In this document: positions 16,566 through 28,433 of the stretch, one piece after another | Numbering within the stretch: position 1 is the stretch's first letter | Layout of the letters: each line of letters opens with the position of its first letter | IMG/VR virus record: IMGVR_UViG_3300021512_000005 | Location: 9,040-73,039 of that record | Reading direction: 5' to 3' (one strand) | From: a virus | Length of the DNA: 64,000 bases | Position numbers and translations under genes: made by a program | The notes under the pieces: generated by a model | The model's input: the letters and a program-made list of their open reading frames with translations, nothing else | Told to the model about the DNA's origin: nothing | The model's database searches: none

Positions 16566-16679
16566 TTAATTAAGATTTTTAAATTTCTTTAAAAATTTTA
16601 TTTTTTTTAAATTTTGTTTAAATTTTGGACCAATATATTTTCTACCATTCGTATCATCAAATATTACTTTTACTACCAT
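16566..16679 (-). CDS. Micro-ORF (37 aa) coupled to the upstream ART-like gene
   Basis: TAATG overlap; MVVKVIFDDTNGRKYIGPKFKQNLKKIKFLKKFKNLN*. Confidence 0.4.
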   Translation of the reverse strand: MVVKVIFDDTNGRKYIGPKFKQNLKKIKFLKKFKNLN

Positions 16680-18076
16680 TATTCTAACCTCTTTCTAAAT
16701 TCTGCTGCTGTTATTTTACCTTCAGATGTATCAAGTATAATATCTTCAAGATTAAATTTCATAATTTTATTTGGAAGTAATGTTACTTCTTGTTCAGGAA
16801 ACCCAGAACCAGAAACAGCATAATGCATTACAACATTATTGAGATATTCTTTTTTTGGAATTTTATATTTAATACTTTTTACTTTAATTCCTTTTATTGT
16901 TATAAATCCTTCCATTTTTTCACTAAAAACATCAGCCACATGTTCACTTTCACTCCAACATGACATGTGTCCAATTGAATCAATATCTATTGTTTTTGCT
17001 TCTAATGGTAAATTAATAATTGCATTTATAAAACTTTCTCGTGCTGAATATTTTGTTTCACCTCTATAAATATACTCATTACCATTTTTTTCTGCATATT
17101 CTTTTGCACCAGTTATTAAAAGATCTAATGCATTTTTATTTATATCTTTTAATTCAAGTTCATTATTCATATATTTTTTTATTAATGCACCAACTTTATT
17201 CATCCCAAGTCCATATTCATTATACCACAAGTCAGTAATATTTTGTGCTCTTTCAATTAAATAACTTTCTTCACGAGGTATTTCATCTTCTATTTTTGAA
17301 AAAATTGTTTTTGGTTTATTTTCTATTAATTCATTAGGTTTTTGTACTTCTTTTTTTATACGTTCTAATAATAAATTTTTATTTGATTCTATAGTAGCAG
17401 TTGAATGACAAAATGCTTTTATAAGATTATCAGGATAAAAATTTGTTACTATTTTTATTTTTTCACCAGCATTACTTTCTTTTACAGATGGTGATTTACC
17501 AGAAAACATACAAGGATCATCAAGAGATATAAAATAATCTCCAATAAACATTTTATTATCTTTAAAATTTACTAAAATTTCTTTATTATTAATTTTAATT
17601 TGTAAATCACCATTATCTAAATCTTTTGTTTCAACATGTGAACGTTTTAATTCATTTTTAATTGATTTTTTCACATATTCTTCATATTTTTCTTTAGAAA
17701 TATAAGTTAATGGTAAAAAATTTTTTTCAATATATTTATATGCATTTATTTCTTCTTCTGTTTTTAAAATTTTTCCACTTTGTATTTTTTTTATAAAATC
17801 TAAAAGACCTTGTTCTATATTAAGACCTTCTTTTGTTACAAATTTTGAAAAATTTTTTGATTCTGTTGTTGGAATATTTGGAAATGCTGCATTAGCAAAT
17901 ATAAAAATATCATTTTTTGAAATTTTCATAATTTTTGATTTATTAACAAAAAGTTCATCATCATGACCAACTTCTGCTTCACGCCAATATGCCTTATGTT
18001 TTGGTGAAGCAGGTACATAAATTTTTTTACGACTTTTTGCTTTTGCAAGATTTAATAATGATATTTCTATTTTCAT
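16679..18076 (-). CDS. Leader-family protein with C-terminal ADP-ribosyltransferase-like domain
   Basis: Leader MKIEISLLNLAK; R-S-E-type motifs YIYRGE, MSCWS, EQEV. Confidence 0.6.
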   Translation of the reverse strand: MKIEISLLNLAKAKSRKKIYVPASPKHKAYWREAEVGHDDELFVNKSKIMKISKNDIFIFANAAFPNIPTTESKNFSKFVTKEGLNIEQGLLDFIKKIQSGKILKTEEEINAYKYIEKNFLPLTYISKEKYEEYVKKSIKNELKRSHVETKDLDNGDLQIKINNKEILVNFKDNKMFIGDYFISLDDPCMFSGKSPSVKESNAGEKIKIVTNFYPDNLIKAFCHSTATIESNKNLLLERIKKEVQKPNELIENKPKTIFSKIEDEIPREESYLIERAQNITDLWYNEYGLGMNKVGALIKKYMNNELELKDINKNALDLLITGAKEYAEKNGNEYIYRGETKYSARESFINAIINLPLEAKTIDIDSIGHMSCWSESEHVADVFSEKMEGFITIKGIKVKSIKYKIPKKEYLNNVVMHYAVSGSGFPEQEVTLLPNKIMKFNLEDIILDTSEGKITAAEFRKRLE

Positions 18077-18089
18077 TTTCTATCTCCAT

Positions 18090-18248
18090 TTAAATTTCAC
18101 TTGTTCTATAATAACCTCTATTAAATTTTTTAATAACTTCATCTTTATTCAGTTTTAAATCTTTAAATATTCCATTAAAATTTCCATTATTCCATCTATC
18201 AATTTCAATTGCTTTTTTAGGTGTAAGTCTATATATTATTATTGTCAT
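18090..18248 (-). CDS. Small ORF (52 aa) downstream of the kinase gene
   Basis: GGAGG RBS; MTIIIYRLTPKKAIEIDRWNNGNF...RGYYRTSEI*. Confidence 0.45.
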   Translation of the reverse strand: MTIIIYRLTPKKAIEIDRWNNGNFNGIFKDLKLNKDEVIKKFNRGYYRTSEI

Positions 18249-18269
18249 TTATATTACCTCCTATAAATT

Positions 18270-26681: not shown

Positions 26682-26760
26682 TCTCCAACCTCATATTTTT
26701 TCGTAACCAATTACGATTAATTGCTTCATCATCAATTTTAATAGTTTTTATTTTTTTCAT
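26665..26760 (-). CDS. Micro-ORF (31 aa) coupled to ART-like gene
   Basis: ATGA overlap; MKKIKTIKIDDEAINRNWLRKNMRLENDKEN*. Confidence 0.45.
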   Translation of the reverse strand: MKKIKTIKIDDEAINRNWLRKNMRLENDKEN

Positions 26761-27686
26761 AATTCATCACCAAATGATACATCATCTTTATAAATAGTAA
26801 TAGGATTTGAAGATATTGTAAATTCTCTTTCACTGAATATATCAGATAAACCCCAAAATAACCAAATATCTTTTTTTGGAAATGAGTGTCTAATAATTAT
26901 TCCATCCTTCATTGCAAAGGCTTTTGCAATATTAAAACGTTCTGACCATGATGATAAAGATGCTAATTCTACTTTACATTTTCCATCTTTATTTAATGTT
27001 TCTTTAATTTTTTCAGCTCTATTTTCTTTAATTCCACGATATAATTTTATATTATCTGTATTTGGAAACATTTTATCTATAACTTGATCAATAAATTTTT
27101 TCATTGCAATAACTTTTTGTAAATAATTTTTATCTAATGCTTTTTCTTTAAGAGTATCTTTTAATTTTTCAATATCAATATCATTTGGTAAATGTGTATC
27201 TAAATTTTTTCCAGTTAATTCATTTATTGCTATTTGTAATTTAACAGAATCTATAAACTGTGGATTATCAAAAAATTTTTCAACACTTTCTTTAACTGAA
27301 TTATCTTTTATATTTCCAGCATAAAATGTAATATCATCAAACATATTTTTAAATTCTATTGCACCTTTTGTAAGTTCAACAGGCACATGAATTTGATGAT
27401 CTTTAAATCCAATATCTTTCCATGTTTGAAATAAATTTGTCCAATCCCAATCAATTCCTATTTCTTTAAATTTATTTGAATATTTATTTAATTCATCACT
27501 GAAATCTAAAGAATCATAATATTTTTGATATTCTTTTTTAACAAATAATTTTTCTTTCCTATTTTCTTCTTTTCTACCAAGCCGCTGTTTACGTTGAAAT
27601 ATTTTACCTTGACGATGAACTGTTACATATCCTTCATGTATTCCACGTTCATCTTTTAATAAATTTAATAAATTAATTTCAATCAT
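26757..27686 (-). CDS. Leader-family ADP-ribosyltransferase-like protein
   Basis: Likely start ATG 27686 (MIEINLLNLLK-DERGIHEG); KLYRGI, LSSWS, SEREF. Confidence 0.68.
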   Translation of the reverse strand: MIEINLLNLLKDERGIHEGYVTVHRQGKIFQRKQRLGRKEENRKEKLFVKKEYQKYYDSLDFSDELNKYSNKFKEIGIDWDWTNLFQTWKDIGFKDHQIHVPVELTKGAIEFKNMFDDITFYAGNIKDNSVKESVEKFFDNPQFIDSVKLQIAINELTGKNLDTHLPNDIDIEKLKDTLKEKALDKNYLQKVIAMKKFIDQVIDKMFPNTDNIKLYRGIKENRAEKIKETLNKDGKCKVELASLSSWSERFNIAKAFAMKDGIIIRHSFPKKDIWLFWGLSDIFSEREFTISSNPITIYKDDVSFGDEL

Positions 27687-27756
27687 CTTTATCTTTATTT
27701 TCTTTATTAATAAATATAAAATCTTCAAATTGCCCAACAAATTTTTTTTGATCCAT
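27679..27756 (-). CDS. Micro-ORF (25 aa) coupled to ART gene
   Basis: TAATG overlap; MDQKKFVGQFEDFIFINKENKDKDD*; its end overlaps the next ATG. Confidence 0.45.
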   Translation of the reverse strand: MDQKKFVGQFEDFIFINKENKDKDD

Positions 27757-28433
27757 TATATTTCCTCTAATTTAATATTTATTTCATTTTGATTTATATT
27801 ATAATCTATAACTTTAAATTTTGTACCATAATCAAATAATACTTCATCTTCAGATGAAAAATGAGATAAACCACTAACTACAACTCCATTTTTACTTTTA
27901 ATTTCCATATATATTGGTGGAGTATTTCGTGGATAAAGATATGCGAATGCTTTTGATAATTTTTGATTTATTGTTGTAGATGTAAAAGGTTTTATTTGAA
28001 TTATACCTTTTTTAATTTCTTGCATAAATTTATCAAATTCAATTTTATTATTAATAGAAACTCCTCTATAAACAATACCATTAAATTTTGGTGCATCATG
28101 TAAAAAATTAGATATTGATTGAATATCTTCTGGTGGTAAATATGAATTAAATATATTATCTGGAATACGTCGCATTGTTTTATTTATATGTTCATATCCT
28201 GATTTACAATAATTAATTACATTATTTATATCTTCTTTCCTATTAGGATTATTATTAATCCATAATTCAACATCTTTTAATGAATTAATATATTTATCTT
28301 TATTTGATTCAACTTTCTTTTGCCCAAGTCTTTGCTTACGCTGAAATACTTTACCTTGTCGATGAACTGTTACATAACCTTCGTGAGTTCCACGTTCATC
28401 TTTTGATAAATTTAATAAATTAATCTCTATCAT
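27756..28433 (-). CDS. Leader-family VIP2/Alt-like ADP-ribosyltransferase
   Basis: YxxINxxxR helix, IVYRG, FTSTT and EDEVL (ExE) motifs. Confidence 0.82.
   Translation of the reverse strand: MIEINLLNLSKDERGTHEGYVTVHRQGKVFQRKQRLGQKKVESNKDKYINSLKDVELWINNNPNRKEDINNVINYCKSGYEHINKTMRRIPDNIFNSYLPPEDIQSISNFLHDAPKFNGIVYRGVSINNKIEFDKFMQEIKKGIIQIKPFTSTTINQKLSKAFAYLYPRNTPPIYMEIKSKNGVVVSGLSHFSSEDEVLFDYGTKFKVIDYNINQNEINIKLEEI

Follow-up and report, generated by a model that had tools for sequence, protein, structure and literature searches.

A two-part leader shared by effector-like proteins and the prohead protease of an uncultured virus, and its possible role in head loading

The 73,039-bp linear virus record IMGVR_UViG_3300021512_000005 of IMG/VR (CheckV completeness estimate 69%) represents an uncultured tailed virus known from contigs of vent metagenomes alone. 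The stretch analyzed here, 64,000 nucleotides at positions 9,040 to 73,039 of that record (the window, whose own numbering is used throughout), contains head genes that all lie on the minus strand, in the order TerL, portal, leader array, prohead protease, scaffold, and major capsid protein (MCP). The block between portal and protease comprises 13 open reading frames (ORFs), most of which carry a leader of about 40 amino acids (aa). This leader has two parts, a short tag with the pattern IE(I/L)(N/D)LxxL and a basic β-hairpin that follows it, and the tag recurs at the extreme C-terminus of the prohead protease. Neither the division into two parts nor the tag of the protease appears in the preliminary description of this stretch.

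The head-gene block and its leader genes

The head genes and leader genes of the window are:

30721-32076, minus strand: TerL (Pfam Terminase_6C, E 2.1e-12)
28420-30051, minus strand: portal, 543 aa (Pfam Phage_portal, E 4.6e-33)
27756-28433, minus strand: leader (28302-28433) and R-S-E ADP-ribosyltransferase (ART), 225 aa (ADPrib_exo_Tox, E 1.1e-12)
26757-27740, minus strand: leader (27555-27686) and DRAT-like ART, 327 aa as listed (DRAT, E 3.1e-6; YRG / SSWS / ERE)
25395-26681, minus strand: Cys/His-rich pre-module (aa 1-43), leader (26427-26555), and DRAT-like ART, 428 aa (DRAT, E 4e-5)
24384-25319, minus strand: hairpin-only leader (25167-25277) and uncharacterized domain, 311 aa (no lead in Pfam, PHROG, NCBIfam, or the ESM Atlas)
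23467-24387, minus strand: leader (24256-24381) and HExxH zincin-like domain, 306 aa (phrog_33618, E 7.4e-18)
22843-23470, minus strand: two leaderless ORFs of 88 aa and 119 aa (from the ORF list)
22040-22666, minus strand: 43-aa leader ORF (22535-22666), in-frame TAA (22532-22534), and JAB/RadC-like ORF of 154 aa (22040-22504)
21832-22047, minus strand: Cys-rich leaderless ORF, 71 aa (a pre-module elsewhere)
20278-21732, minus strand: MuF domain (aa 84-195), leader (20953-21081, aa 218-260), and HExxH domain, 484 aa (Phage_Mu_F, E 1.4e-16)
19124-20278, minus strand: 96-aa N-terminal extension, leader variant (19874-19993), and PI3/4-kinase-like domain, 384 aa (PI3_PI4_kinase, E 2.3e-4)
18270-19127, minus strand: leader variant (19002-19121) and paralogous kinase-like domain, 285 aa (PI3_PI4_kinase, E 5.3e-5)
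16679-18076, minus strand: tag, divergent hairpin (KIYVPASPKHKAYWREAEVG type), and ART domain (aa 330-447), 465 aa (IYRG / SCWS / EQE)
15596-16537, minus strand: prohead serine protease, 313 aa (Peptidase_S78, E 4.6e-5, 24.1 bits against a cut-off of 21)
14868-15365, minus strand: scaffold, next to the HK97-fold MCP
13822-14865, minus strand: MCP, HK97 fold of the SU10 type (SU10_MCP, E 6.1e-25)
4336-4752, minus strand: tag and divergent hairpin (MIEINLQKIKEVYVKASPRAKAH), 138 aa as listed (window-trained profile, E 8.6e-5 for 4339-4770)
4109-4336, minus strand: 75-aa ORF with a tag-like KKIELNLKDY near its C-terminus
3568-4116, minus strand: ERG-type leader (3994-4116) and 140-aa C-terminal part with no assigned function, 182 aa, outside the reported block

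The stop codon of the portal gene overlaps the start of the first leader gene (27756-28433). The preliminary description counted ten genes with the module. Nine of these are intact, whereas the tenth is not one ORF but an interrupted fusion, because its 43-aa leader ORF ends in a TAA that is in frame with the JAB-like ORF. This TAA sits within an A-run and is unchanged in contigs of two further runs (X3, X4) labeled hydrothermal vent metagenome; intact leader-JAB fusions occur in relatives (L018 1333-1971, P0041, and P0068; L numbers denote loci, L001-L046, from IMG/VR and JGI metagenome scans with leader, portal, and protease profiles). The string ERG(T/I)HE(G/E)YVTVHRQGKxFQRKQR(L/V)G is present exactly in the six genes for which it had been reported. 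Reading the sequence also bore out that 24384-25319 lacks the IExxL part, which is present in the full leaders of its homologs L017 3728-4720 and P0040, and that the two kinase-like genes and 16679-18076 carry variant leaders.

The set of leaders is larger than first described. A profile trained on nine leaders of the window finds 12 copies when run against all six frames of the 73-kb record, namely, the nine training sequences, 3568-4116, 4336-4752, and the 43-aa frame 22535-22666. A general profile, built from 86 database matches, recovers 10 of the 12 at E ≤ 0.01; the two that fail, 16679-18076 (which has no Pfam match and whose leader passes the window-trained profile only) and 4336-4752, have hairpins that resemble the YVKPTxxRKGYYREQEVG subtype of L009. 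Eleven of the 12 leader proteins in the record lack a MuF domain, in line with the earlier notion of a stand-alone leader detached from MuF. In the array of the window, Phage_Mu_F is found only in 20278-21732, which also matches TIGR01641 (E 5.2e-14) and, over aa 347-476, phrog_33618 (E 1.1e-15).

Four ORFs of the block carry no leader (23204-23470, 22843-23202, 21832-22047, and the JAB ORF 22040-22504). The 119-aa ORF is kept inside the arrays of relatives (L002 2824-3183, L008 3145-3522, L017 6439-6795), and the 71-aa ORF 21832-22047 matches both the N-terminus of the hairpin-ART protein L005 1990-3567 and L039 5599-5778. The pre-module of the 428-aa ART recurs in L001, L002, L005, L008, L009, L010, and L017. 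The true start of 26757-27740 is likely the ATG at 27686. The second kinase-like gene, 18270-19127, is 76% identical at the nucleotide level to the ortholog of its neighboring paralog and is absent from the close relative G005. Outside the block, 3568-4116 has relatives in P0008, P0052, P0064, and P0072; the small ORFs 3277-3549 and 4109-4336 share a KFRLKGSKDK motif and have a relative at L002 7533-7760.

An intergenic element, AATAATAATTATxTATTGAGG (coding strand), is repeated at 16547-16585, 21739-21777, and 22801-22839, immediately ahead of the protease, MuF, and leader-JAB start codons, and boundaries of cassettes that differ between the window and G005 also lie there. The acidic C-terminal region of the portal (28597-28699) is encoded by four tandem 21-nt repeats, which yield EPEYGSE-like heptads.

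Tag, hairpin, and the end of the prohead protease

Over 81 nt, the six ERG-type copies of the leader share 78-94% of their nucleotides and 85-100% of the encoded residues; in the 40 codons that follow, 3-17% of the residues agree. Each pair differs by 3-11 synonymous codons, and the longest exact runs between copies measure 15-44 nt. The leader DNA had been described as nearly identical between genes. This is true of the 36-mer quoted in support, which occurs in three exact copies (two more have 2-3 mismatches; none was found in 100 shuffles), but not of the leader as a whole. A longer repeat of 125 nt is present in six copies that are 73-100% identical to the reference copy. Since synonymous codons diverge while the protein remains 85-100% identical, the sequence comparison indicates that the leader is under selection at the protein level. 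The notion that the shared N-termini have no function and are leftovers of recent tandem duplication or gene conversion would account for the exact runs of up to 44 nt; it is hardly credible in view of this synonymous divergence and of the maintenance of the leader across 86 protein clusters and in several contigs at 40-90% identity.

The consensus of the leader reads MIEIDLxKLERGTHxGRVKVTRGGKTFxRKQRVGxKE. No model in Pfam, PHROG, or NCBIfam covers it, and the ESM Atlas gave no usable lead for leader residues 1-45 or for 24384-25319. In an AlphaFold model of the 225-aa ART (86-row alignment; mean predicted local distance difference test [pLDDT] 75.8), the hairpin is formed by strands at residues 17-25 and 28-36 (block means 95 and 84), and tag residues 1-10 have no secondary structure (block pLDDT 54). 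The same hairpin is predicted in the 306-aa HExxH protein (block means 72 and 62). The mean net charge of 79 leaders is +6.8 for the hairpin and -0.5 for the tag; the rest of the proteins carry about -0.6 per 100 residues.

A charge of +6.8 over some 30 residues and a confidently predicted β-hairpin would also suit a module that only binds nucleic acids. The hairpin would then send the enzymes to viral or host DNA or RNA, the tag would serve oligomerization or regulation, and nothing would be packaged; some cargo without an obvious enzymatic domain (3568-4116) fits this scenario. It leaves unexplained, however, why the protease and small ORFs of the head module end in a tag without a hairpin, why the synteny with head genes is strict, and why leaders and MuF or scaffold fusions are complementary, and we consider it distinctly improbable.

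Tags without hairpins occur on the protease and on small ORFs. The last eight residues of the window protease, IEIDLDEL (15599-15622), are the tag of the leader, and the end of the protein reads ...KITFKIEIDLDEL. Its orthologs end in ...KIEINLDEL (G005), ...ETVEIDLSELI (G003), and ...NLIEINLQEL (G001), and the preceding 70-150 residues are not homologous among the four. The unfused protease thus ends in the tag in four of four leader-positive viruses, whereas the tag is absent from both proteases that are fused to the scaffold (G002, L034). Two small ORFs homologous to the N-terminus of the window protease end in ...MLEIDLGKL and ...LIEIDLSKL, and the tag also terminates four proteins that share their Cys/His-rich pre-module with the 428-aa ART. 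Across the loci, 14 stop-terminated frames end in the tag, whereas 200 residue shuffles averaged 1.1 such frames and never gave more than 4; 12 of the 14 are proteases, small ORFs, and Cys-rich proteins (the six protease rows include duplicate and partial loci), and the other two resemble noise.

Neither the tag nor a match to the general leader profile is present in L039-L046, eight protease loci at a greater distance (28-38% identity). In the six loci with a fully covered portal-to-protease stretch (L039, L040, L042, L044, L045, and L046), MuF either is long or carries a fused ART, and portal lengths are 564-931 aa; L041 encodes an ART fused to MuF, and the 898-aa MuF of L040 is followed by an ART465-like ORF. 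The pattern that emerges from these sequences is that an unfused protease in a leader-positive virus carries the tag, a scaffold-fused protease does not, and viruses without leaders lack the tag and, where ARTs were identified (L040, L041), have these tied to MuF.

The same loci bear on the alternative that the leader binds the portal or MuF and tethers a few enzyme copies to the portal vertex, with no bulk loading via scaffold or MCP. SPP1 gp7, a protein of the MuF family, is reported to bind in this way. The arrays begin at the portal stop codon and include MuF, the leader-negative relatives have MuF-fused effectors and long portals, and the N-terminus of MuF is itself tag-like (KIELSLIEK in the window, MIDVDLLLAKL in L040). 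This resemblance is weak, however, and not kept in G002 or G003; moreover, the same tag is present on the protease, which must work throughout the shell, and twelve cargo species would have to compete for a few portal sites. Such a tether is unlikely. The similarity of the MuF N-termini (KIELSLIEKII in 20278-21732; MIDVDLLLAKL in L040 3999-6692) suggests that the tag may be derived from MuF.

Two further features of the protease genes deserve mention. A module of about 75 aa (KAWVVxFANGHAxQCFEDExDADxF...) precedes the tag in the window protease (aa 232-307; 15596-15900) and likewise in the MuF proteins of G002 and G003 (L025 814-2796; L026 799-1950) and in the kinase-like L015 1-1293; it appears to travel with the tag. 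In G002 and G001 (L023 336-1403, L024 182-1407), the counterpart of residues 4-53 of the window protease forms a small ORF of its own with the tag at its end; next come a Cys-rich, HNH-like ORF of 257-314 aa and then the protease core, an arrangement that looks like a protease gene split by an insertion of the homing-endonuclease type.

Spread of the leader, cargo domains, and cassette turnover

A leader-profile search, proposed in the preliminary description, recovered head-linked homologs with varied C-termini. hmmsearch with the nine-leader profile against 1.84 billion cluster representatives returned 86 proteins at E ≤ 1e-3 (10 at E ≤ 1e-10), which include two proteins of the window itself and a few that are nearly identical to window or G005 proteins. 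The majority have no Pfam match; matches were obtained to ADPrib_exo_Tox (6), DRAT (5), ART (4), ART-PolyVal (4), PI3_PI4_kinase (4), MuF (2), GNAT (2), ATLF (1), PARP (1), and Peptidase_S78 (1). Several architectures are composite: P0024 (761 aa) combines MuF, leader, ART-PolyVal, and a kinase-like domain, P0019 (906 aa) combines a hairpin, an S78 protease, and a coiled coil, and the MuF protein of G002 consists of MuF, tag, hairpin, and kinase. Two entries, P0030 and the GTPase P0066, which ends in a hairpin, were set aside as probably merged or truncated gene calls.

The first leader gene adjoins the portal gene in eight loci (L001, L003, L004, L005, L008, L010, L017, and L018) and follows TerL in L006 and L007; in L002 and L012, leader genes precede the protease. 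The contigs L009, L011, L014, and L015 (≤2.5 kb) contain only leader genes with kinase-like or protease-like modules, and L013 has a weak MCP match. Tandem arrays of two to five adjacent leader genes are present in L002/L005, L004, L011, and L018, and the leader recurs in several contigs at 40-90% identity. Leader homologs are therefore linked to head modules, as had been anticipated, and are confined to the head-gene neighborhoods of one virus lineage; they are encoded in the head/packaging module together with a variable set of C-terminal domains.

In 68 of the 86 proteins, the leader begins no later than residue 12, and in 10 more it begins at residues 13-30; six proteins have an internal leader and two a C-terminal one. 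Copies inside a protein fall precisely on domain boundaries (MuF, kinase-like protein, 428-aa ART, P0024, and the MuF-kinase of G002), as expected if the motif IE(I/L)(N/D)L...E(R/K)G marked such boundaries and were cleaved or recognized by the prohead protease or by the HExxH/JAB peptidases. Autoprocessing by metallopeptidase domains is predicted for polyvalent proteins in the available text of Iyer et al. 2017 (PMC5512222), and the junction of the protease-scaffold fusion in G002 reads VVEIGG. However, since the motif sits at the extreme ends of most proteins (within 12 residues of the N-terminus in 68 of 86, in the last 8-9 residues of the proteases), cleavage would free almost nothing, and the candidate site LEKA of the MCP is LAKA in two orthologs. 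A processing site is about as improbable as a mere nucleic acid-binding module. Glu-specific prohead cleavage (KLE|RG in the leader, LE|KA in the MCP) was dropped as a candidate, because P1 is Ala in two of four MCP orthologs, and no consistent site at which the prohead protease would remove the leader could be derived.

The earlier assignments of the C-terminal domains fared unequally: the ARTs hold, the kinases and HExxH domains are plausible but below family thresholds, and the JAB domain is recognized by its motif only. The ART fold of 27756-28433 is confirmed by both profile (ADPrib_exo_Tox, 48.2 bits against a cut-off of 23.4) and structure, with Vis, XopAI, and iota- and C3-type ARTs as the top Foldseek matches of its model (E 1.4e-8). 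DRAT scores 27 bits for 26757-27740, above the cut-off of 25, and 23.4 bits for 25395-26681, just below; 16679-18076 joins the ART428/ART327 family in a local jackhmmer run only. The Arg / Ser-x-Ser / Glu-x-Glu motifs read in these proteins are what we take to be the R-S-E signature of ADP-ribosyltransferases.

The kinase-like proteins score 21.6 bits (384 aa) and 23.7 bits (285 aa) with PI3_PI4_kinase, both below the cut-off of 27.1. Their family has an invariant GNxDRHxxN...IDN in eight homologs; TIGR03843 is far below its cut-off, and the best E value in a PDB profile search is 0.017. In the HExxH domain, for which a search for homologous proteins gave five matches, H207, E208, G210, H211, and E214 are invariant in 11 homologs (HExGHxxE plus E269). 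A VIA-align comparison of model residues 124-306 gave PPEP-3 (Z 8.3, 150 aligned residues), the catalytic domain of anthrax lethal factor (Z 7.9), and PPEP-2 (Z 7.7), which form a consistent family, although unrelated models also reach Z values in this range; the pLDDT of the 306-aa model is 58.5 overall and 75-92 in the domain, and Foldseek found nothing at E ≤ 0.001. The matching family phrog_33618 has no known function in PHROG, and Pfam ATLF is found on one of the 86 leader proteins. The JAB-like ORF has no Pfam or PDB sequence match, and its motif E...HNHPxGxSFSxxD is invariant in three sequences. PDB sequence searches with 16679-18076, JAB154, HExxH306, and three alignment profiles yielded nothing significant.

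Cassettes differ between close relatives. The regions TerL-portal and protease-scaffold of G005 are 94% identical to those of the window, but G005 lacks the body of the 225-aa ART; the alignment of L016 12465-12585 to both leaders places this junction inside the leader. G005 also lacks the stretch from the hairpin of the 428-aa ART through the 119-aa ORF (the G005 homolog ends right after the tag), as well as the second kinase-like gene and the 465-aa ART, and carries foreign genes. Its portal (L016 10001-12472) is split into 496 aa, an inserted 248-aa ORF, and an 82-aa ORF with the C-terminal residues of the portal; the inserted ORF encodes a basic hairpin without a tag and a JAB-like HTHPS...D motif. 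With two breakpoints inside leaders, these differences agree with the proposal that C-termini are swapped via the leader.

Domain repertoires that overlap those of polymorphic toxins, and the variation of the cassettes, might point to toxins that are secreted or released by lysis and directed against competitor cells, with the leader as a trafficking domain, a role proposed for MuF toxins in the available text of Jamet et al. 2017 (PMC5576092). We consider this very improbable. No small immunity-like genes are regularly paired with the cassettes in the ORF list, no leader was found in 185,579 species genomes, and the protease bears the same tag.

The earlier designation of the virus as archaeal is unsupported, and its gene content is undecided between a bacterial and an archaeal host. 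Two scans of one genome per prokaryote species (185,579), with the leader profile and the portal profile, recovered no relative. The nearest cultured portals, from viruses of Arthrobacter, Mycobacterium, and Haloarcula (18-26% identity), point to both actinophages and haloarchaeal viruses; tblastn with the MCP against cultured phages gave no match, and a scan for sigma-70 promoters showed no enrichment (153 found, 158.7 expected). No RNA data set was listed as holding the stretch. Elsewhere in the window, an anaerobic ribonucleotide reductase NrdD (54554-57331, plus strand; E 2.9e-151) is split by a LAGLIDADG-bearing intein, genes for tRNA-Lys(ttt) (52034-52109) and tRNA-Asn(gtt) (63622-63694) are located in the replication half of the genome, and a switch of the gene strand near 46 kb coincides with a change in the sign of the GC skew.

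Proposed loading of the head and comparison with known systems

What is observed directly is the module with its spread and synteny, its joint occurrence with a tagged protease, the hairpin in the structure predictions, and the differing cassettes of relatives. Together with the analogy to phage T4, these observations make it probable, in our view, that the leader directs proteins into the capsid and retains them there, much like the capsid targeting sequence (CTS) and internal proteins of T4, and that it stands in for a covalent link to MuF. As a short linear motif that is functional at either terminus, the tag would dock its bearer onto the assembling procapsid, with MCP, scaffold, or portal as candidate partners. 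The hairpin (30 residues, net charge about +7) would be reserved for proteins meant to remain in the filled head; most likely, it would anchor the cargo to packaged DNA or to the inside of the capsid and thus let it exit with the genome. The cargo, presumably expressed within the late head-gene cluster, would consist of fast-changing host-modifying enzymes, including four ARTs, two PI3/4-kinase-like proteins, two ATLF/PPEP-like zincins, and a JAB-like protein, among others, and the prohead protease would enter via its C-terminal tag alone. If the leader replaces covalent fusion to MuF or portal, each cassette can therefore be gained, lost, or swapped separately.

Several points weigh against this interpretation. 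The presence of leader proteins in virions, like tag binding, encapsidation, any cleavage, and injection, is inferred, the virus being known from metagenome contigs alone, and MCP, scaffold, and portal are all candidates for the receptor of the tag. Leaders are internal in 6 of the 86 proteins and in three of the window (MuF, the 384-aa kinase-like protein, and the 428-aa ART); the leader thus does not depend on a free terminus and may serve as a cleavage or boundary site. In 24384-25319 and the hairpin-JAB-like ORF of G005, a hairpin is present but no tag, and two leader genes (3568-4752) lie near tail genes, away from the portal. Uniform placement of tag matches predicts 6.8 at C-termini, compared to the 14 seen; this excess is moderate, and the argument from the tag therefore rests mainly on the protease orthologs. 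Because all leader-positive viruses belong to one lineage (portals 52-97% identical), protease tag and cargo leader may go together through one inherited event and would then not count as repeated independent evidence.

A complex prediction of MCP, scaffold, and leader residues 1-48 (three chains) scored 0.00 against a mark of 0.32; run without controls, it speaks neither for nor against binding. The N-terminus of the MCP has a motif, xEID(S/H)ExLYK, that is kept in the alignment of its orthologs. A MEID in the scaffold N-terminus was rejected as a tag; it lies within an insertion absent from three orthologs and is probably due to chance. Loading by the leader is partly compatible with both the portal/MuF tether and the processing site.

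More tentatively, the leader may be part of a two-part code for head loading that evolved independently of T4, in which an 8-residue tag at either terminus is used by the maturation protease and about a dozen swappable enzymes, and the cationic hairpin picks those passengers that remain with the DNA and reach the next cell. If so, the tag would be a natural, minimal, and programmable cargo-loading peptide for a phage-type HK97 capsid, and the array would correspond to a polyvalent protein dissected into single genes and would show directly how such proteins are put together and broken up by recombination at the leader.

Proteins that are packaged by viruses and injected act first in infection, for example, in anti-defense and host takeover; to our knowledge, the choice of proteins for packaging is poorly known outside T4, P1, and giant phages. 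Comparative data alone provide a candidate signal of 8 + 30 residues and a list of potential cargo that spans many metagenomic viruses and includes ARTs, kinase-like proteins, zincins, GNAT, and unknowns, and the comparison of the window with G005 documents the gain and loss of cassettes at leader repeats. They also suggest a testable rule, according to which proteins with the tag only enter the procapsid, whereas those with tag and hairpin enter and stay. Metagenomes can be screened with this signal for injected effectors that lack a recognizable domain; if the leader works as proposed, the signal could also offer a small loading tag for HK97-type particles.

A literature search limited to abstracts and text passages, without supplements, found no published description of this leader. 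The idea is not new in kind, because the internal proteins of T4, according to the available text of PMC3012670, already have only the CTS in common. The CTS of T4, carried by IPI-III and Alt, is the closest known system: in the passages available (PMC3012670, PMC9503650), it is a short N-terminal leader and the only feature common to diverse, fast-evolving, injected prohead cargo; one cargo protein, Alt, is an ART, and prohead protease and scaffold are present. One short leader on otherwise unrelated proteins is likewise found here, in 12 copies in the record. Unlike the CTS, the present leader is about 40 aa long and has two parts, and its tag also ends the protease; the likeness drawn here is one of arrangement. 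In addition, the capsid is small, of the SU10/HK97 type, and has MuF.

Short terminal peptides, namely, the targeting tail of the HK97 gp4 protease and the cargo-loading peptides of encapsulins, direct proteins into a shell with the HK97 fold. In phage SPN3US, the propeptides of eight head proteins are N-terminal, whereas that of the protease is C-terminal; the resemblance to gp245 lies in an N-terminal signal on cargo and a C-terminal signal on the protease (both from the available text of PMC10052503). In contrast to SPN3US, HK97, and encapsulins, one and the same motif is present on protease and cargo here, and it is the position of this motif that hints at binding to the shell.

MuF toxins and polyvalent proteins, as described in the available texts of Jamet 2017 (PMC5576092), Iyer et al. 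2017 (PMC5512222), and PMC9503650, share the location in the head module and the set of ART, kinase, metallopeptidase, and JAB-RadC domains; for polyvalent proteins, packaging and injection are predicted from context (PMC5512222). 20278-21732 and P0024 are true MuF fusions in this sense. Unlike those proteins, however, the effectors described here are separate genes, each with its own leader, rather than effector-MuF fusions, and a stand-alone leader is not mentioned in the available texts of Jamet 2017 (PMC5576092) or Iyer et al. 2017 (PMC5512222). Compared to known systems, the distinctive feature is thus a two-part leader that is detached from MuF, found on a dozen individual genes, and held in common with the protease.

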